This document shows positions 25,315 through 58,480 of a DNA stretch of 64,000 nucleotides, piece by piece. Position numbers and translations under genes: made by a program. The stretch comes from Verrucomicrobia bacterium ADurb.Bin018 (lineage in GTDB: Bacteria; Verrucomicrobiota; Kiritimatiellia; CAIQIC01; Lenti-01), in NCBI GenBank assembly GCA_002071335.1, contig MWEZ01000001.1, forward strand, positions 7,262 through 71,261, in the 5' to 3' direction. Below the pieces are notes generated by a model that saw nothing but the letters and a program-made list of their open reading frames with translations, had not been told where the DNA came from and searched no databases. Positions within the stretch are counted from its first letter, which is position 1. Each line of letters starts with the position of its first letter.

Positions 25315-25630
25315 GTAGGGCGGGAACGGTTGAGGAACGAAACTTTCCCGCCGAGAAAGCGGCTGGAAGATCTGCAACCGTTCTAGCCCTACAAACCAAA
25401 CCCGAACACAAACCAAACCCGGCTGCTTTTGTAGGGCGGGAATGGTTGAGGAACGAAACCTTCCCGCCGAGAAAGCGGCTGGAAGATCTGCGACCGTTCC
25501 AGCTCTACAAATCAAACCCGGACACAAACCAAACCCGGCTGCTTTTGTAGGGCGGGAATGGTTGAGGAACGAAACCTTCCCGCCGGAAAAGGCTGGAAGG
25601 TCTGCGACCATTCCAGCCCTACAAACCAAA
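25315..25630. repeat. tandem array (about 2.5-3 copies, unit about 116 bp) of a REP/BIME-like element carrying two GC-rich stem-loops (GGCTGGAA...TTCCAGCC and GGGCGGGAA...TTCCCGCC)
   Basis: Direct repeats read from the sequence. A related single copy lies at 48792-48876. Sits at the convergent junction of argS and rplQ. Confidence 0.75.
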
Positions 25631-25651
25631 CGGCATCCGTTGCCGGATGCC
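25622..25651 (-). terminator. putative rho-independent terminator after rplQ
   Basis: Hairpin GGCATCCG-TTGC-CGGATGCC followed on the minus strand by TTTGGTTTG. Confidence 0.45.
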
Positions 25652-44060: not shown

Positions 44061-45734
44061 ATGTGCGGGCGAATGGCATTGTGGGGCTGGCTGCTGGTTT
44101 GCTTCTTGGCCTCCGCGCCGTTGGCGCGTGCGTACGAACCGCTGCTGCTGGGCGATGATGAGCGCTTGCTGGTGTTGGCCCCGCATCCGGACGATGAAGT
44201 CCTCGCCGCCGGTGGCGTTATCCAAGAAGCGCTCGATCTCGATGTGCCCGTGCAGATTTGTTTTTTCACGCTGGGCGAGAATAACGAGATCGCCGCGCTG
44301 TTTACCCGGCGACATCCCGCGTTCCGACCGGGGCCGGAGCAGGCGTTCGGCGGCCAACGCCATCGCGAAGCCCTGGCCGCGGCCACCCAATTGGGCCTGC
44401 AAGAGGAAGACATTGTCTTCCTGGGCTACCCGGATCCCGGCACGCTCGACATCTGGAATCACCATTGGCGCACCGTGCCGCCATATCGCTCGCCGGTGAC
44501 GCGCGAAAACACCGTGCCCTACGATTTCGCCCTGACGCCCGGCTCCGCTTTCGCCGGCGAAGATATTCTGGACGATTTGCAAGAGGTGATCCGCGAGTTT
44601 CAACCCACCCATGTCCTGCTGCCGCACCCGGCCGACCAAAACACCGACCACCGCGCGCTCTACTTTTTCGCGCGGGTTGCATTGTGGGAATTGATGACGG
44701 AGGGCATCCGCCCGCAAGTCCTCACGTGCCCCGTGCATTTGGCGCGCTGGCCGGAAGCCAACGGTTTTCAACCGCAACAGCCGGCCGAGCCCCCCCCCTT
44801 CCTCGCCAAGGACGGGCAGTGGTGGGAGTATTCGCTCGCGCCGTTCCAGGTGTCCAACAAGTTGGCCGCGCTGCGGCGCTACCACAGCCAATTTCTCCCG
44901 GCGCAAGCCTATTTGGAATTGTTCGTGCGCAAGACGGAGCTCTTCCACGAGCTAGCGGATTGGTCCTTCTCGCGCGGGCAAGGCCGCCGCGAGGTGCCGG
45001 CGCTGGATACCGCACAGTATCGGCCCAATCTTGCGCTTTTCCAAACGCTCGCCCAAACCGCCGGCACGTGGCGCGAAATCGCACAGCAAACCGCCACGGA
45101 ACAAAATGCGCTGGCCAACGCGGAAAACATGTTGGGCGCTTGCGCGCTGGATGGCGATGGCGCCAATCTCACGCTGACGTTCCACACCCAGCGCCCAATC
45201 GAGAGGCCCGCCGAGCTGGTTGTGCGGCTCTATGGCTACCGCCCCGACACTCCGTTTGGCGACATGCCGAAGATCAAGCTCCGGGCCGGCGCGGATGGCT
45301 GGCTGGATGTTCAGGATTTGGACCGCAAAATCGCACACGGCGCTACCGTCACGGCCGACATGCAAAACGAGCTCATTTTGCGCGTGCCGTACGCGCTGCT
45401 GGGCAATCCGGAAAAATTGTTCATCACCGCCAAGCTCATGAAGGGGAATCTGCCGATTGACGGTCTGCCTGCCATGACGCTGGATTTGGGCGATATGCCG
45501 GCCCTCGCGCTGATACCAGCCGCACCGGCAGAACCCGCTGCTCCGCCAGAACTTCCCCCCGCCAAACCAAGCAAGCCCACAAAACCCGCCAGACCTGCCA
45601 AAGCAACTAAGCCTGCTCCGACTCCTTCTCCCCCGCCTGCCGTTGCGCCGCCGACTGCCCTTGCGCCACGCGTGAGCTTGCCGACCAAAGCCGTCCCGGC
45701 CCATACCGAGGCCAACGAGCCGGTGCAGTGGTGA
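44061..45734 (+). CDS. PIG-L/LmbE family deacetylase with signal peptide and Pro-rich C-terminal tail
   Basis: LAPHPDDEVL motif and HPADQNTDH. C-terminal PAKPSKPTKPARPAKATKPAPTP. Confidence 0.6.
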   Translation: MCGRMALWGWLLVCFLASAPLARAYEPLLLGDDERLLVLAPHPDDEVLAAGGVIQEALDLDVPVQICFFTLGENNEIAALFTRRHPAFRPGPEQAFGGQRHREALAAATQLGLQEEDIVFLGYPDPGTLDIWNHHWRTVPPYRSPVTRENTVPYDFALTPGSAFAGEDILDDLQEVIREFQPTHVLLPHPADQNTDHRALYFFARVALWELMTEGIRPQVLTCPVHLARWPEANGFQPQQPAEPPPFLAKDGQWWEYSLAPFQVSNKLAALRRYHSQFLPAQAYLELFVRKTELFHELADWSFSRGQGRREVPALDTAQYRPNLALFQTLAQTAGTWREIAQQTATEQNALANAENMLGACALDGDGANLTLTFHTQRPIERPAELVVRLYGYRPDTPFGDMPKIKLRAGADGWLDVQDLDRKIAHGATVTADMQNELILRVPYALLGNPEKLFITAKLMKGNLPIDGLPAMTLDLGDMPALALIPAAPAEPAAPPELPPAKPSKPTKPARPAKATKPAPTPSPPPAVAPPTALAPRVSLPTKAVPAHTEANEPVQW

Positions 45735-48949: not shown

Positions 48950-51094
48950 TTAGCGATGGAGGAATTTCTCCAGCAGCGGCGTGGTCTTGACCAGCATCGG
49001 CGCAATCACCAACGCCACCACGCTCATCAGCTTCATCAGGATGTTCAGCGACGGCCCGGCGGTGTCCTTGAAGGGGTCACCCACGGTGTCGCCCACCACG
49101 GCCGCCTTGTGCGCCGGGCTGCCCTTGCCGCCATGTGAACCGCCTTCGATGTGCTTCTTGGCGTTATCCCACGAGCCACCCGCGTTGGCCATGAACAGGG
49201 CCATCATCACGCCCGACACCGTCACGCCCGCCAGCAACCCGCCGAGCATCTTGGTGCCGAACACAAAGCCGATGATTACCGGCGTCAACACGCCCAACAG
49301 CGCCGGCACCGTCATCTTCTTGATGGCGGCGGCGGTGGAAATATCCACGCAACGCGCGTAGTCGGCGCGCGCACCTTCCTTGCCTTCCAGCAGGCCGGGG
49401 ATCTCCTTGAACTGGCGGCGGACTTCTTCCACCATGGCAAACGCGGCCTGACCCACCGCTTGCATGGCGAACGCGGAGAACAGGAACGGCATCATCGCGC
49501 CGATCAACAGGCCGGCGGTCACGTTCGGATCCATCACGTCAATCTTGTCGAGCTTGACGGTCTGGCCGAAAGCCGCAAACAACGCGAGGGCCGTCAGCGC
49601 AGCGGAACCGATGGCAAAACCCTTGCCGATGGCCGCGGTCGTGTTGCCGCAGGCATCCAGCTTGTCGGTACGCTGGCGCACTTCCTTTTCGAGGTGCGCC
49701 ATTTCGGCGAGGCCGCCCGCGTTATCCGCGATGGGCCCATAAGCATCCACCGCCAGTTGAATCCCGGTGGTGGCCAGCATGCCGAGGCCGGCGATGGCGA
49801 TGCCGTAGAGGCCCGCCGTCATGTAGGAAATCATGGTGGCCGCCGCCAGCACAATCACCGGCAGCGCGGTGGACATCATGCCGTTGCCGAGGCCGGCGAT
49901 GATATTGGTCGCCGCGCCGGTGGAGGAAGCATCCGCAATGCGGTTCGAGGGGCCCTTGCCTTCCGCGGTGTAGTATTCCGACAGGAAGCCAATCGCCACG
50001 CCCGAAGCCAAACCGGCCAGCGTGGCCCAAAAAATGCCATTGGCGTTGTACACCTTGGCCGCCATGCCCGGTAGCGCGGCCACGCTAAAGGCCGACGGCG
50101 CAAACTTGGCAATCACCACATACGACGCTGCGGCCGTCAGCACCGCCGCGCTCAGCGAGCCCGCGTTCAGCGCGTTTTGCGGGTTGCCGCCTTCGCGGGT
50201 GCGCACCATGAATGTGCCTAGAATCGAAAACAGAATGCCCACGCCCGCCAACAGCAGCGGCAGCATCACCAGATTCATTTCCGAACCCTTGGCGCCCGCC
50301 GGAATGGAGGACACCGCCGCCAGCACCATGGCCGCCACGATGGCACCCACATAGGACTCGAACAAGTCGGCGCCCATGCCGGCCACATCGCCGACGTTGT
50401 CGCCCACGTTGTCGGCGATCACGGCCGGGTTGCGCGGATCGTCTTCAGGGATGCCCGCTTCGACTTTGCCTACCAAGTCCGCGCCGACATCCGCCGCCTT
50501 GGTATAGATGCCGCCGCCCACGCGCGCGAACAGCGCAATCGAGCTGGCGCCCATCGAGAAGCCGGTCAGAATCGGCAGCACCGTGCCATTGAGCATCTCA
50601 TTTTCGGTGCCAAACATCTTGAAATACACCAGCGTCAGGCCGGTCAGGCCCAGCAGGCCCAGGCCCACCACGCACATTCCCATGACCGAGCCGCCGGCAA
50701 ACGCCACGGCCAAGGCCTCGGGCAGACCCTTGCGGGCCGCGTTCGTGGTGCGCATATTGGCCGCCGTGGCCACGCGCATTCCGAAATAGCCGGACAGCAC
50801 CGAACAAAGCGCGCCGACCACAAACGATAGCGCCACCAGCGACAGATTCTTCTGCCCCGTCACCTTGACGTTCAGGTAGGCCAGCAGGCCCGCCACCACA
50901 ATGACGAAAATGGCCAGCACCTTGTATTCACGCCGCAGAAAAGCCATGGCGCCTTCGCGAACCGCCGCGCCGATTTCCTGCATCCGTGCCGTGCCTGGAT
51001 CTTGTTTGTTGATCCATTGCGTACGCCACCAAGCGAACGCCAACGCCAATACCGCCGAACCCAAAGCCGCAAAAAGAAGTGTGCTTTCGTTCAT
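48950..51094 (-). CDS. hppA: membrane-bound pyrophosphate-energized proton/sodium pump (V-type PPase)
   Basis: 714 aa. Conserved [13 protein letters not shown] and DNVGDNVGD motifs. Confidence 0.9.
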
Positions 51095-51222
51095 AGTAAA
51101 ACGTTTCTCCTTGTTTCTTTTCTAACTATCGAACGTCGGGAGCCTAGGGGATTCACCGCCCCCTGTCAAACATGAACCCGCCAAAATCGCATGATTTCCG
51201 CCCCCCCCCCGCGGGCCCAGAC

Positions 51223-53693: not shown

Positions 53694-54681
53694 GTTCCGC
53701 TCCCGGCGCTTGATCCCAAATGCCATCCCAGCAGGCCACTTCATGCCCCCCGCCCAACTCGCGCAGTGCCGGCGCGTGCTGCCGGCACACCGCGCGCGCC
53801 AGCGGACAACGCGGCGCAAACCGGCAGCCCGGCGGCGGATTCCGCAGCGACGGCAACTGGCCGGGAATATCTGGCAACCGCTCCGCTCGGCCATGCAAGC
53901 GCGGCATGGCCGCCAACAGCCCCCGCGTGTACGGATGCGCCGACGTCGAAAACAGTTGCTCACGCGTGCCCTTTTCCGCCAGCCGCGCGGCATACATCAC
54001 GTGCACCCGGTCGCACACCTCCCACACCACGCCCATGTCGTGCGTAATCAGCAGCACCGCCGTCTCGCCACCGCGCAACTTCAGCAACAAATCAAAAATC
54101 TGGTCTTGGATCGTCACATCCAGCGCGGTGGTCGGCTCATCCGCAATGATCAACTCCGGCTCCGGCAACATCGTCATCGCCAACATCACCCGCTGGCGCA
54201 TCCCGCCGGAAAGCTGGTGCGGATAATCCTTCATCCGCTGCGCGGCATCCGGCAGGCCCACGCGCTTGAGCCACTCCAGCCCCAGCGCCCACGCCTCCGC
54301 CGCGGATAGCCTGCGGTGCAGCCGCGCGGTTTCCGCCAACTGGTCGCCGATGCGGTGCAATGGCGAGAGCGCCGTCATCGGCTCCTGAAAAATCATCCCG
54401 ATTTTACCGCCACGGATCGTCCGCAATTCTTCGGTGGGCATCGTCAGCAAATCCCGCCCGTGGAACAACGCCTGCCCGCCTTCGATCACCGCCGGCGGGC
54501 GCGGCAGCAGCCGCAGCAATGTCAGCGCCGTCACCGTTTTGCCGCAGCCCGATTCTCCCACCAGCCCCAGCACTTCGCCACGGCGAATCTCAAACGACAC
54601 CCCATCCACGGCCCGCACAAAACCTTCCGGCGTCGCGAACCCCGCACGCAAATCTTTCACTTCTAGGAGACGCTCCGCCAT
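53686..54681 (-). CDS. oligopeptide/dipeptide ABC transporter ATP-binding protein (OppD/DppD-like), no permease partners in the window
   Basis: Walker A GESGCGKT. LSGGMRQR. C-terminal GCRFAPRCP motif. Confidence 0.75.
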   Translation of the reverse strand: MAERLLEVKDLRAGFATPEGFVRAVDGVSFEIRRGEVLGLVGESGCGKTVTALTLLRLLPRPPAVIEGGQALFHGRDLLTMPTEELRTIRGGKIGMIFQEPMTALSPLHRIGDQLAETARLHRRLSAAEAWALGLEWLKRVGLPDAAQRMKDYPHQLSGGMRQRVMLAMTMLPEPELIIADEPTTALDVTIQDQIFDLLLKLRGGETAVLLITHDMGVVWEVCDRVHVMYAARLAEKGTREQLFSTSAHPYTRGLLAAMPRLHGRAERLPDIPGQLPSLRNPPPGCRFAPRCPLARAVCRQHAPALRELGGGHEVACWDGIWDQAPGAEHG

Positions 54682-54883
54682 TTGTCCCGCATCATCCTTG
54701 CCGCCCGCGCCCAACGCAAGCGTTTTGGGATTCTACAACCAAGAAAAGCCCCAAGTCGCCGCTGATGTATTTTTCTACAGCCCGACGGATTTATGAACAA
54801 TCTTTGCAAAACAATTATCTCCTATTTTAACGAAATCCTAATGTTGATTATCTTGCAAAATCAAATTCTTTTGCCCACAACTA

Positions 54884-56800
54884 TTGCATGATTTTGGGCA
54901 TCTCGGCATCTCGGCATCTCGGCATCTCGGCATCTCGGCATCTCGGCATCTCGCAAGCCGTATAGCGCGGCATGTTTCTTTCCTAATCACCTCCCTGCTT
55001 CTTCCAATTTCTTCTCTTGCCGCGACGGCTCTGGATGTCCGCGGCGTCTCGGTCACCTTCTCCCCTCAGGGGGATTCTCTTTCTGAAATTATCCGAACGC
55101 TCCATTCCGCCAAGCGGCGCATAGATGTCGCGCCATTTTTCCTAAGCCATACCAATCTGATCGACACCCTCTGCTTCCTGTCGGCCAAGCAAAAGCTCAA
55201 GGTCCGCTGCTTCATGGACCCCGCCTCCACCGCTCCCGCTGAATGTCATGTTCTGGACCGGCTTGCCCAAAACGGCGTCGAGGTCTACGTGGTCCAAGTG
55301 CCCGACGGCAAAATGCACCTCAAGTGCGCCGTCGTGGACGACGGCGTTGTCATCACCGGAGCAGCCAATTGGACGGTTCGCGGATTCGAAAACAATGTCG
55401 AGGATTCTCTCTTTCTGCAATCCCCGGCCCTTGCTCAAGCCTATCGTGCGCGTATGGATCGTTTGCTGCCAATTTCCGAACTTTATCATGCCCCCCGCCT
55501 TGACGACTCCGAACGCTTCGAGTCCAAGCCCAGCAAGCTTTCCCAAAGTAAACCCCCGACGCTGACATATGCCGCCCCGCGGCTCCAGCGCTTCAGCTCC
55601 GTCCGATCCGCCCGCGTCTTCTTCTCCTCTGATTCCGAACCCGACAACGGATTGTTGGCATCCGAAACCATTCTATCCCGCATTCACGCCGCCCAGAAGC
55701 GGGTGGATGTCGCCATGTATCTGCTGGTTGAACCTACGCTTGTCGAGGCCCTCGCCCAAAAAGCAACCGAGGGCAAAGTGCCCGTTCGCCTGCTTGTCGA
55801 TTCCGGAATGCTCGACTCTTCTTCGCGAACCGTGCTGGAAACACTCGTGGCCGCCGGGGTGCAGGTGAATTGGCTGGGCAACGAGAAGTTCAGTATGCAT
55901 CTTAAGACGCTTGTCCTGGACGAAGCGCAGGTCTGGACCGGCTCCGCCAACTGGTCTCAATCCGCCTTCGCGCACAACATCGAGGATTTGGTTCTCATTG
56001 AGTCCGCCGATCTGGCGCGCGCCTATACCCGGCACTTCGACACCCTCCATGCCGCCGCAACCCCTTTCCAACCCGCTTCTCTTTCGGTTTCAGCACCATC
56101 CAATGCCCCGGCCTCCGCCGAATTCCCCATCGGCTTGCCACCCACCGGTCCCCGCACCAACTGGCCGTCTGGCCTTCAAGACGTCGCCAGCGAAGACCTC
56201 CTTCTTTCCGCCTCCGCCCGCTATCTCGCCGACGAAGAATACCTCCCCGCCTTGCTGGACCTGATCCGAAATGCCCATCAATCGGTCCTTGCCTCCATGT
56301 ATGTCATGGGCGAGCCCCAAAAGGACCAACCCAACCTCAACCAACTCACCGCCGCTCTGGCGCAGGCTGTTCAACGCGGAGTCTATGTCCATCTGGTCCT
56401 CCACATGCCCCTGTCCGAAGCCGTCACCATGAACCAAATCCATCTGGACTGGGCCGAAAATCTCCGCGCCAAAGGCGTGGATGTCCGCTTGCATATCCCC
56501 ACCATCCCCCTGCATGAAAAAGTCGTTGTCGTGGACCTTGCCAAAGTCCTGATCGGCTCCCACAATTGGTCCGAAGGCGCCCTCTCCAGCCAAAAAGTCA
56601 CTGAATCCGGCGTCCTGCTCGTCCTGCCCCAACAGGATCGGCGGCTGGCCGACCATATCCTAAACCGCGAATCCATCCGCGACATGCGCACCCCTGCGCT
56701 TTGGCAGGAGGAGTTGCGCACCCTCCGGCAACTGGGAAACACTTCCGGCAAGGAACGCGACACCCTCCTCGATCAGCTCGAACCGGAGGAAATGCCGTGA
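54884..56800 (+). CDS. secreted phospholipase D/nuclease family protein with three tandem HKD domains
   Basis: HLKCAVVD...GAANWT, HLKTLVLD...GSANWS and HEKVVVVD...GSHNWS. Hydrophobic signal-like segment after the repeat-encoded N-terminus. Only a TTG at 54884 is in frame upstream, so the start is uncertain. Confidence 0.55.
   Translation: MHDFGHLGISASRHLGISASRHLASRIARHVSFLITSLLLPISSLAATALDVRGVSVTFSPQGDSLSEIIRTLHSAKRRIDVAPFFLSHTNLIDTLCFLSAKQKLKVRCFMDPASTAPAECHVLDRLAQNGVEVYVVQVPDGKMHLKCAVVDDGVVITGAANWTVRGFENNVEDSLFLQSPALAQAYRARMDRLLPISELYHAPRLDDSERFESKPSKLSQSKPPTLTYAAPRLQRFSSVRSARVFFSSDSEPDNGLLASETILSRIHAAQKRVDVAMYLLVEPTLVEALAQKATEGKVPVRLLVDSGMLDSSSRTVLETLVAAGVQVNWLGNEKFSMHLKTLVLDEAQVWTGSANWSQSAFAHNIEDLVLIESADLARAYTRHFDTLHAAATPFQPASLSVSAPSNAPASAEFPIGLPPTGPRTNWPSGLQDVASEDLLLSASARYLADEEYLPALLDLIRNAHQSVLASMYVMGEPQKDQPNLNQLTAALAQAVQRGVYVHLVLHMPLSEAVTMNQIHLDWAENLRAKGVDVRLHIPTIPLHEKVVVVDLAKVLIGSHNWSEGALSSQKVTESGVLLVLPQQDRRLADHILNRESIRDMRTPALWQEELRTLRQLGNTSGKERDTLLDQLEPEEMP
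54897..54953. repeat. octanucleotide tandem repeat (CATCTCGG), about 7 copies, inside the 5' end of the triple-HKD PLD gene
   Basis: Read directly. The unit length is not a multiple of 3. The in-frame translation is HLGISASR HLGISASR. Confidence 0.85.
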
Positions 56801-57576
56801 GCCTCCGCTATTCCCTCCTTTCACTCCTCTTGTTGGCTCGGGCGACCTTCGGCCTAGCCCAAACCAACCCTTCCGACCTGATTCTCCTCCGCAACGGACG
56901 CGAGCTTTCCGGTCGCCTCATTCAGGAAACCTCCGCCGGATATGTTCTCATCCCGGCGGGGGCCCCCACCCAAATCCAGCGCATTCCCCGCGAAGCCACT
57001 GCTTACGTCCTCTATGCCGATCCAGCCCAGGCCGCCAAACTCCTCGGCCTCGACTCCGTCGCCCGAAATCTCTCCAAAGCCCCCGCCCCCGCCGAAGTTC
57101 GCCTCCTCGCCGCCGAACCCTTCGGCAAAGCCCTCCTCGAAGCCGCCCGTTCGGCCACTAACTCCATCTGGATTTCCGCCTACTACTTCAGCGACAGCCG
57201 CGCCGCTCCCATCAAAGATTTCTACGCTACCCTCCGCGAAAAAGCCGCTGCCGGCGTCGAGGTTGTCATCCTCGTCGAAAATAGCACCGCCTCGCCGCCC
57301 GCCATGCGCCGCGCCAATGCCAATTTCGCCGCCCAACTCTCCGGCGACGGCATCCAAACCCTCCTCTGGAGCGGCACCAACAAAGCCCTCCATAAAAAAC
57401 TCGTCATCATCGACGGACGAATCCTTTTGCTCGGCAGCTCCAACCTCTCCCTTTCCGGCACCTACGGCAGCATCGAAATGAACATCCTCACCGAGGCCCC
57501 CCACCTCGTTCAACCCGCCATTGCCGACTTCCAGCGCCTCTGCACCCAACTCAAGCAACGACAGGCTGCCCCATGA
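56797..57576 (+). CDS. secreted single-HKD phospholipase D family protein
   Basis: HKKLVIIDGRILLLGSSNLS. Signal peptide. A GTG start overlaps the upstream TGA (GTGA). Confidence 0.55.
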   Translation: MSLRYSLLSLLLLARATFGLAQTNPSDLILLRNGRELSGRLIQETSAGYVLIPAGAPTQIQRIPREATAYVLYADPAQAAKLLGLDSVARNLSKAPAPAEVRLLAAEPFGKALLEAARSATNSIWISAYYFSDSRAAPIKDFYATLREKAAAGVEVVILVENSTASPPAMRRANANFAAQLSGDGIQTLLWSGTNKALHKKLVIIDGRILLLGSSNLSLSGTYGSIEMNILTEAPHLVQPAIADFQRLCTQLKQRQAAP

Positions 57577-58265
57577 CCTCCCTGCGCACAACTGGCTACG
57601 CTTTGTTTACCCTCTTGACTCTGCTCCAACCGCTCTCTGCCGCCCCAAAACTGATCATCAATCCCGAGACGTTCGATTTCGGCGAGGTACCCTCCGGTGA
57701 ATCCGTTCAGGCCACCTTTACCCTCCGCAACGCTGGCGATGAACCCCTCCACATCAACCATGTCCGCACCAGTTGCGGTTGCACCACCTCTCGCCTGGAC
57801 AAACGCGAACTTGCTCCCGGAGAAGAAACCCCGCTAACCGCCACCCTTTCCCTCAGAAACCGCAGCGGCCCCCAACACCAGCGCGTCACCATCGCCTCCA
57901 ACGATCCGGATGCCCCCTCCAGGCAGGCCCACATCCAGGGAACCGCCGTCCAATACCTCACGTTGACCCCCTCCGCCGTCCTACTTTTCTCCGCCCCCCA
58001 AGGGCAATCCATTACCCGAACTCTTTCGCTCCATTCCGAAAATCAGACCCCCTTCCAACTTCTCTCCATCGAGGTCACCCATCCCAATCTTACCGTCGCG
58101 GTCACGCCGGTCTCCCCCAGCTCCTACCGCCTCGCCCTCACCATCCCCGCCACCTGGCCCGCCGGACGCATCAACGAATCCTTACGCATCCACACCGACC
58201 ATCCCCACGCCCCGATGCTGACTTGCTCCATCACCGGAACCCTGCAAACTGGAGACAACCCATGA
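57573..58265 (+). CDS. DUF1573 domain secreted protein
   Basis: FDFGEV...FTLRNAGDEPLHINHVRTSCGCT signature. ATGA overlap with the upstream gene. Confidence 0.65.
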   Translation: MTSLRTTGYALFTLLTLLQPLSAAPKLIINPETFDFGEVPSGESVQATFTLRNAGDEPLHINHVRTSCGCTTSRLDKRELAPGEETPLTATLSLRNRSGPQHQRVTIASNDPDAPSRQAHIQGTAVQYLTLTPSAVLLFSAPQGQSITRTLSLHSENQTPFQLLSIEVTHPNLTVAVTPVSPSSYRLALTIPATWPAGRINESLRIHTDHPHAPMLTCSITGTLQTGDNP

Positions 58266-58480
58266 TCCCGCATCGCCCATGGCCGCTATTATTCCTGACA
58301 CTCGCCCTCTGGACAGGGGCCTCCTCCGCCCAGACTTGGACCACCGTCTGGACGCCCGGCTCCGCCCCCGCCCCCACCCACACGAAGATGGAACAAGAAA
58401 TGGAACCAGAAAAAGACCACAAATCACCGACCAACTGCTATCCCTGCAAGGAGTGGGAAGCCTACGGCGACGGCACCGGC
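58186..58480. repeat. conserved 5' module copy 1 (DUF1573 3' end, ATGA junction, signal peptide, TWTTVWTPGSAPAP...NCYPCKEWEAYGDGTGKWV)
   Basis: Near-identical to 61988-62290 and partly to 63650-63940. GC-rich relative to downstream sequence. Confidence 0.75.

Follow-up and report, generated by a model that had tools for sequence, protein, structure and literature searches.

The DNA analysed in this study, in the following called the window, is a stretch of 64,000 nucleotides (nt) from Verrucomicrobia bacterium ADurb.Bin018, a member of the Kiritimatiellia. It carries on its plus strand a gene of the phospholipase D (PLD) superfamily (54884..56800), and the 5' end of this gene contains a tandem repeat of the 8-nt unit GGCATCTC. 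A preliminary description of the window regarded the repeat as a slipped-strand contingency tract. The comparison with related loci presented here supports this view by copy-number polymorphism, conserved pure tracts at the same site, unrelated tracts in paralogues and alleles that differ by a single unit. Related loci and proteins are designated by L and P numbers, respectively.

The deduced protein of 638 amino acids (aa) contains only PLD-family domains, with three PLDc_2 stretches detected in Pfam (E = 8e-66) and three HxK(x)4D (HKD) motifs at residues 145, 339 and 544. The segment 54953..55030 encodes ASRIARH-VSFLITSLLLPISSL-AATA and contains no canonical start codon. Here, the hydrophobic sequence VSFLITSLLLPISSLAATA follows the basic SRIARH and ends with A-x-A, and it is conserved as N-terminus of the orthologues. 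This basic-hydrophobic-AxA arrangement is predicted to be a signal peptide cleaved before LDV (AATA-LDV). The structure model (mean predicted local distance difference test, pLDDT, 67) shows a helix at residues 20-39, with low confidence over residues 1-51. Foldseek searches with this model retrieved the bacterial PLD 7e0m, the PLD3/4 exonucleases, the phosphatidylserine synthase PssA and vaccinia F13 (E about 1e-15), and the best sequence matches in the PDB were Zucchini/MitoPLD and the Nuc and NucT nucleases. At the level of the model, the PLD fold of the two-domain type is confirmed, and lipases and nucleases are not separated by structure or fold search. The gene had been introduced as encoding a triple-HKD secreted phospholipase; the three PLDc_2 domains, the three HKD motifs and the export signal were recovered, but "phospholipase" is only a superfamily label describing a predicted function of the three-HKD protein. 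At 50% identity, only about 20 representatives match over most of the profile length, and about half of those inspected were called without the signal peptide.

Three further genes follow on the same strand, each overlapping its predecessor by 4 nt. These are a single-HKD PLD gene (56797-57576, overlap GTGA with the three-HKD gene), a gene for a DUF1573 protein (57573-58265, overlap ATGA) and a gene for a prokaryotic phospholipase A2 (PLA2)-like protein passing the Pfam threshold (58262-59041, overlap ATGA). The order of the four genes is the same in the orthologous loci. They probably form an operon in which translation of the downstream genes may depend on the first one, so that the repeat may gate the whole translationally coupled operon. 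Active sites of the PLD superfamily are built from two HKD halves. Since the three-HKD protein and its single-HKD partner together have four of them, the pair might form two active sites. The presence of the PLA2-like gene leans towards lipid substrates.

Tandem Repeats Finder (TRF) reported the tract as (GGCATCTC)x7.1 at 54897-54953 on the plus strand, with period 8, 100% matches and no indels, i.e. seven full copies plus one base. It was the top-scoring short-period array of the window. The figure of about seven perfect 8-nt units given earlier was thus accurate, and the unit named there, CATCTCGG, is GGCATCTC in another register. A 24-nt probe of three units matched nowhere else in the 64 kb (0 matches expected from 100 shuffles). 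The single 8-mer occurred 10 times in the window compared to 2.5 expected occurrences, seven of the ten being the tract itself. A metagenome-wide scan for three consecutive units yielded 32 loci, none of which is this gene as judged by the flanks and none a PLD relative. A terminator scan also pointed to a small hairpin (GCCGT-ATAGC-GCGGC, 54957-54971) followed by a T-rich run, which adjoins the repeat and spans the ATAG junction; with only 5 base pairs it is weak and may have arisen by chance.

Two possible start codons precede the tract. TTG 54884..54886, 10 nt before its first base, is in frame with the 638-aa open reading frame (ORF) 54884-56800, and in this frame the tract is translated as HLGISASRHLGISASR. 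ATG 54888..54890 (ATGATT...) lies 4 nt further downstream, in a frame shifted by +1 relative to the PLD ORF. At seven copies it opens an ORF of 25 codons, MILGISASRHLGISASRHLGISQAV, which ends at TAG 54963..54965; the same TAG terminates this frame at four copies. Behind the repeat, no ATG, GTG or TTG occurs in the PLD frame up to 55040. Read codon by codon, the frame contains none of them before ATG 55214 (residue 111), which already lies inside the first PLD domain, in agreement with the previous statement that no in-frame ATG or GTG separates the repeat from this domain. When the locus was rebuilt in silico with 3 to 11 units, TTG 54884 was in frame with the PLD sequence at 4, 7 or 10 copies, ATG 54888 at 3, 6 or 9 copies, and neither of them at 5, 8 or 11 copies. 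The simulation thereby bears out the notion that gain or loss of a unit shifts the frame. The tract is uninterrupted, its unit is not a multiple of three, and it separates the start codons from the functional part of the ORF, so that a change by one unit alters the frame; which of the two starts is used has to be deduced from the relatives. The idea that TTG 54884 is the only upstream start in frame is correct for seven (or 4, or 10) copies, where it is the sole canonical one.

In all ten orthologous species compared (63-98% identity), an ATG is followed by two or three codons, a pure tract and the signal peptide. The unit is GGCATCTC in the window, L009, L012 and L013, GGCATCTT in L010, the 7-nt sequence GCATCTC in L011, CGACATCT in L014, GCATTTCG in L121, CATATCGA in L123 and GACAACTC in L122. 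The units of the orthologues differ by one or two substitutions, and every array is internally pure. Pure but drifting arrays are the expected product of continuing slippage, with a variant unit spreading through the array. Their purity suggests that slippage is ongoing because point mutations would erode an idle microsatellite.

The region in front of the tract (54780..54896, plus strand, 117 nt) has a GC content of 32% compared to 59-64% on both sides and is a putative promoter and leader. An alignment of the 10 orthologous upstream regions revealed a CTTGCAA box (54852-54858) located 33 nt before ATG 54888 with a spacing fixed among the orthologues; the columns C54852, T54854, G54855, A54857 and the ATG (54888-54890) are invariant. 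A scan of 54600-55100 for the sigma-70 consensus gave no promoter match. The AT-richness of this region was described correctly, but the term "promoter-like" refers to this AT-richness and the CTTGCAA box only. In principle, the tract could act on transcription, as some repeats located in promoters do, by changing the spacing of promoter elements or by lengthening or shortening an untranslated leader, and the AT-rich region with its conserved box just upstream would suit such a role. However, every relative has the tract downstream of both the box and the conserved ATG, the ON alleles translate it in frame, and no promoter consensus spans it, so that we regard an effect of this kind as very unlikely. 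A possible secondary structure of the leader RNA was considered, too, and discarded as not significant (z = -0.67).

A Shine-Dalgarno motif was found neither in front of TTG 54884 nor in front of ATG 54888; ribosome-binding sites of the AAGGAG type are present at many other genes of the window. ATG 54888 is invariant in the 10 orthologues. TTG 54884, on the other hand, is not kept in relatives, being replaced by TTA in L012 and by CAC in L013, which represents another species. Where relatives are in frame they begin at the conserved ATG: the ORFs of L010 and of the paralogue P0021 open with it. P0021 begins with MILGISASRHLDSRIARW... and reads MILGISASRHLDSRIARWFLSFF..., corresponding to the window product expected at 3 or 6 copies, and P0003 reads MIFGILASWHLG.... 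From these comparisons, ATG 54888 is likely the authentic start and TTG 54884 a lineage-specific extra. Since the ATG is taken as authentic, the sequenced 7-copy allele would be either weakly ON via TTG or OFF. The current copy number had been said to keep the frame open; this applies to TTG 54884, but the conserved ATG 54888, which had not been mentioned, is out of frame in this allele. All resolved alleles being in the TTG frame mildly favours selection for TTG-driven expression, but this bias goes back to hardly more than a single independent change, from 4 to 7 or from 7 to 4 copies.

The Met-Ile context ATGAT(T/C/A) recurs in front of unrelated tracts (window 54888, L015 2927, L031 2943, L034 2877, L126 601). 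Together with the fixed spacing of TTGCAA in the orthogroup, it may indicate that initiation takes place in a special context or that the leader is very short. The pattern TTGCAA-17 nt-CAnnnT-6 nt-ATG fits the orthogroup, L015 and L029 and fails in L017, L019 and L126; its interpretation as promoter of a leaderless mRNA is kept at low confidence.

A stop codon in the frame of ATG 54888 occurs at the start of the signal peptide in 8 of the 10 orthologues, as TAATG in L009 and L014, as TAGTG in L010, L011 and L123 and as ATAG in the window, L012 and L013. This leads to another possible function of the tract, namely control by a leader peptide. ATG 54888 and the tract would then form a short upstream ORF (uORF). 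Its point of termination (at the junction, in frame, or some 35 nt further inside) would depend on the copy number and would tune re-initiation or occlusion at an internal start, which is ATG or GTG elsewhere and ATA/GCG in the window. Consistent with this, the stop (frame +1 relative to the PLD) coincides in part with the ancestral start position of these eight orthologues, six orthologues have ATG or GTG at that position, and all resolved alleles of the window species as well as L013 put the upstream ORF in the junction-stopping frame. Yet the six species with an internal start were never assembled in the junction-terminating state, while the window, L012 and L013 lack a canonical start there (GCG or GCT after ATA). 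Most of the distant paralogues have no internal start, so that the upstream ATG must be the start, and the junction stop itself may just follow from a conserved (G/A)TA codon and a next codon starting with A or G. Coupling via a uORF was downgraded as main mechanism because the species with an internal start are not in the junction-terminating frame, and we consider this explanation quite unlikely.

The exact 638-aa protein has been deposited from Kiritimatiellia metagenome-assembled genomes (MAGs), and a 528-aa member of its cluster from Verrucomicrobia bacterium ADurb.Bin018; related contigs stem from biogas-fermenter and wastewater metagenomes. The cluster at 90% identity has nine members, comprising the 638-aa form (7 contigs), a second 638-aa member (33 more), a 630-aa form, 528-aa calls on more than 80 contigs (82+) and fragments. 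Seven copies of the unit are present in the window, L002, L004 and L132, and four copies in L001, L003, L005 and L006. Over 6-7.6 kb, L002 and L004 do not differ from the window at any position (100% identity). Among the 4-copy alleles, L001, L003 and L006 exhibit 11 single-nucleotide polymorphisms each compared to the window (over about 7.6 kb) and L005 34 mismatches. Hence, copy number differs among near-identical strains (4 versus 7). Counting repeat units, as proposed in the preliminary description, did reveal two lengths among the assemblies, but both alleles are in the same frame. The 528-aa calls were considered as out-of-frame alleles and rejected; the four readable contigs among them carry 4 or 7 copies, the gene caller having chosen the internal ATG.

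Repeats can mis-assemble, and in L012, whose gene is about 98% identical in DNA sequence, a 100-N scaffold gap (1673-1772) splits the tract with about seven copies on each side. Either this tract exceeds the reads in length or it is heterogeneous. The contig of L016 starts inside its own tract, too, but assembly breaks at tracts (L012, L016) are only suggestive. Since the 7- and the 4-copy allele recur in independent assemblies from different projects, the probability of an assembly or sequencing artefact is negligible.

Alleles which do change the frame were observed in relatives. The gene with the unit GACAACTC has four copies with the ATG in frame in L122 and five copies, out of frame, in L124 from a biogas fermenter, with identical flanks. 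Four copies of ATTCCGAG were found in six independent assemblies (L126-L131) compared to five in a wastewater assembly (L125), again with identical flanks; one deposited protein of this gene has eight extra residues, implying 7 units. These single-unit differences (4 versus 5) in two relatives change the frame. A poly-C gene is represented within one 90% cluster by the forms MAVAPPPPPRNH..., ...GGSPPPPPPRNH... and ...GGCPPPPPRNH... in addition to truncated calls. Furthermore, the unit CAGACGC occurs 7.6-fold and in frame in L018 and 6.0-fold and out of frame in L021, the two loci being taken as orthologues from the shared unit and the near-identical flanks. In the GACAACTC cluster (the cluster of P0015), P0066, P0067 and P0071 lack the segment of ATG and tract, and their ORF starts upstream with MKSDFLSI...; they may represent "locked" variants. 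Where a gene has a tract and its upstream start could be identified, only about one in five assembled states was in frame. This is close to the third expected if the state drifts, suggesting that bulk populations are often OFF.

The distant paralogues (37-45% identity), of which a MAG often has two or three, also possess tracts behind the ATG at this position, but of unrelated sequence. These are AGCCGTCC x4.6 (L015), AGACGCC x7.9 (L016), CAGACGC (L018 and L021, see above), CGTCAGC x9.3 (L029), ATTCCGAG x4-5 (L125-L131), (CT)13 (L033), (CT)14 (L034), about (CT)23 (L025), C20 directly after the ATG (L017) and C11 (L019). Usually no canonical start is located between the tract and the signal peptide. 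L026, L035, L036 and L038 have an ordinary ATG and no repeat. The unit lengths are 1, 2, 7 and 8 nt, never 3, 6 or 9. Several tract-bearing paralogues occur in the MAGs CAZNGD01 (L012, L016), JAVEUJ01 (L014, L031) and UBA1418 (L033, L034), each with its own tract, as in an Opa-like repertoire. Based on this distribution, a whole enzyme family in an environmental lineage appears to have converged on a 5' tract architecture with independently arisen units.

A count with fixed thresholds detected 26 perfect repeats in the 256 kb of the family loci and the window. Eighteen of these fall into the intervals -200..+100 around the PLD 5' ends. As these intervals account for 3.6% of the bases, perfect repeats are enriched there about 60-fold. 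Most of the remaining ones are C9-C10 runs. The only other notable homopolymers of the window are C10 at 51201-51210 (intergenic, about 107 nt upstream of the minus-strand gene 48950-51094), C9 at 14006-14014 (just past the stop of 12969-14000) and C9 at 44790-44798 (inside the coding sequence 44061-45734).

The tract might also be a neutral, merely tolerated microsatellite. TTG 54884 would then be the start and the repeat a dispensable extension of variable length, in which only changes by three units survive. This fits with the occurrence of only 4 and 7 copies at the locus, both with the TTG in frame, with the stability of copy number within strains, and with the NCBI annotation, which gives the 638-aa TTG form. 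It conflicts with the absence of the TTG from L012 and L013 while the ATG is invariant, and with the out-of-frame single-unit alleles of the relatives. Moreover, neither would a pure tract persist through 20-37% protein divergence nor would unrelated units re-arise in paralogues, and the unit lengths observed are the reverse of what in-frame tolerance predicts. We therefore consider a neutral repeat unlikely.

Instead, these data make it fairly probable that the tract of the window is a contingency (phase-variation) repeat gating the three-HKD PLD-like gene. During replication, 8-nt units would mispair and the tract would gain or lose units. Because it lies between the only usable starts and the signal peptide, with no canonical start downstream, each change by one unit would move the secreted three-HKD protein into or out of frame with its start. 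With 3, 6 or 9 copies, ATG 54888 would read through (MILGISASRHL...SRIARH-signal peptide-PLD). With 4, 7 or 10 copies, only the non-conserved TTG would be in frame and the ATG would give a peptide of 17 or 25 residues ending at TAG 54963; with 5, 8 or 11 copies, there would be no in-frame start. The three overlapping downstream genes would probably follow the state of the PLD gene. In this scheme, we deduce which start is used, how often the tract switches, how switching affects expression and the downstream genes, and why it is selected. The dN/dS values (ratio of nonsynonymous to synonymous substitution rates) of the three-HKD gene versus its orthologues range from 0.13 to 0.23, and this range includes L013, although its assembly leaves the ORF without any start in frame. 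These values indicate purifying selection on the gene, which must therefore be expressed often enough to be maintained, as expected of a reversible switch.

Several observations argue against such a switch. The resolved alleles of the window locus (4 or 7 copies; 9 assemblies including the window) all share one frame, and none of the nine members of the 90% cluster has the 634 or 642 aa expected with the ATG in frame. Copy number at this locus tracks the strain, and the consensus therefore looks stable on the time scale of the samples. In addition, an ATG or GTG follows the tract in the six orthologues mentioned above, where the window has GCG; if this start is used there, the tract would modulate rather than gate expression in those species. 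Because only frame-preserving variants were seen at the window locus itself, we infer frame switching there from the relatives.

Somewhat speculatively, uncultured and apparently free-living Kiritimatiellia might keep an opa-like repertoire of two or three paralogous HKD/PLA2 operons per genome, each gated by its own tract and serving bet-hedging, with the second start in the window providing an intermediate level. We think this possible, but rather less likely than not to hold in full. If it does, a population would always hold cells expressing different combinations of lipases or nucleases, or none. This would amount to bet-hedging, outside an animal host, for a costly secreted weapon, a public good or a surface factor exposed to phages or predators.

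Further repeats were observed in the window. A 300-nt direct repeat occurs at 58187-58486, 61993-62292 and 63632-63931, the later copies being 91% and 64% identical to the first one. It encodes an N-terminal cassette, MIPHRPWPLLFLTLALWTGASSAQTWTTVWTPGSAPAPTHTKMEQEMEPEKDH..., common to three Cys-rich secreted proteins with different C-termini, the first of which carries the prokaryotic PLA2 domain. The genes lie in a stretch of low GC content (0.47-0.50 at 58-62 kb) among unannotated and HEAT-like genes, and the arrangement resembles polymorphic toxin cassettes. TRF also detected a 116-bp tandem repeat at 25315-25631 (2.8 copies, 93% matches, score 550) and a 31-bp unit at 18915-19058 (3.7 copies) with the palindrome TTTTTCCACGGCGTGGAAAAA.

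The tracts affect annotation, too. Many members of the 90% clusters are truncated N-terminally, e.g. 528 instead of 638 aa for the window gene. Gene callers picked an internal ATG over the start in front of the tract, in some cases (e.g. P0056) even where the upstream start is in frame.

Most known cases of phase variation driven by repeats concern host-adapted pathogens, and immune evasion serves as their explanation. In the gene family described here, this architecture recurs in uncultured bacteria of the PVC group from anaerobic digesters, wastewater and biofilms. If the switch proposed here is real, stochastic switching would be selected in engineered and environmental communities as well, by pressures such as phages, antagonism between cells or cheating on secreted enzymes. 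We found no report in the literature of phase variation or simple sequence repeats in Kiritimatiellia or Verrucomicrobia, nor of a phase-variable PLD.

The closest analogue are the opa genes of Neisseria, in which a CTCTT coding repeat in the leader-peptide region of many paralogues switches at about 1e-3 per generation (PMC3960869). As in opa, where slippage turns translation on or off (PMC3960869), the repeats described here are non-triplet repeats in the 5' coding region of a signal peptide, and several paralogues per genome have tracts of their own, the (CT)n members even encoding part of the hydrophobic leader. The two systems share no sequence homology, however, and opa is an analogue only: it encodes an outer-membrane adhesin instead of an HKD enzyme, and opa genes share one unit, whereas the units vary between genes here (1, 2, 7, 8 nt). 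Opa belongs to obligate human pathogens, whereas the Kiritimatiellia concerned are uncultured inhabitants of digesters, wastewater and biofilms.

In lic1A of Haemophilus influenzae, three levels of expression (strong, weak and off) result from alternative starts that lie in two frames. The locus of the window likewise has two upstream starts in two frames, ATG 54888 and TTG 54884. Its second start (TTG) is not conserved in close relatives, and for this reason a designed three-level switch is doubtful; the product is an exported enzyme, unlike the cytoplasmic kinase encoded by lic1A. The 5' intragenic CAAT repeat of lic1A is a translational switch (PMC3291618). The sialidase NanH3 of Gardnerella is a secreted or extracellular hydrolase whose gene is gated by a poly-C tract prone to slippage; heterogeneity in length of this tract, which lies in the coding region, was shown experimentally within populations (bioRxiv 10.1101/2020.09.16.300947). 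The poly-C members L017 (C20) and L019 (C11) are comparable to it. In contrast to the tracts reported here, nanH3 is a single gene with a homopolymer in a host-associated bacterium.

Long repeats of 5-11 nt are known from some environmental bacteria, an example being the TAACTGA heptamers of marine Beggiatoaceae and cyanobacteria (PMC4679880). They resemble our tracts in forming long tandem repeats near gene 5' ends, and they demonstrate that pathogens are not the only bacteria with such repeats. They differ in consisting of one unit at many intergenic sites with a proposed regulatory function, whereas many units occur inside the reading frame of one family here. The preliminary description had called the tract unusual for an environmental-type genome; in view of the heptamers (PMC4679880) the setting is unusual, but not unprecedented. 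By analogy, the tracts described here would represent a known, opa-like mechanism in a new lineage and a new gene family.

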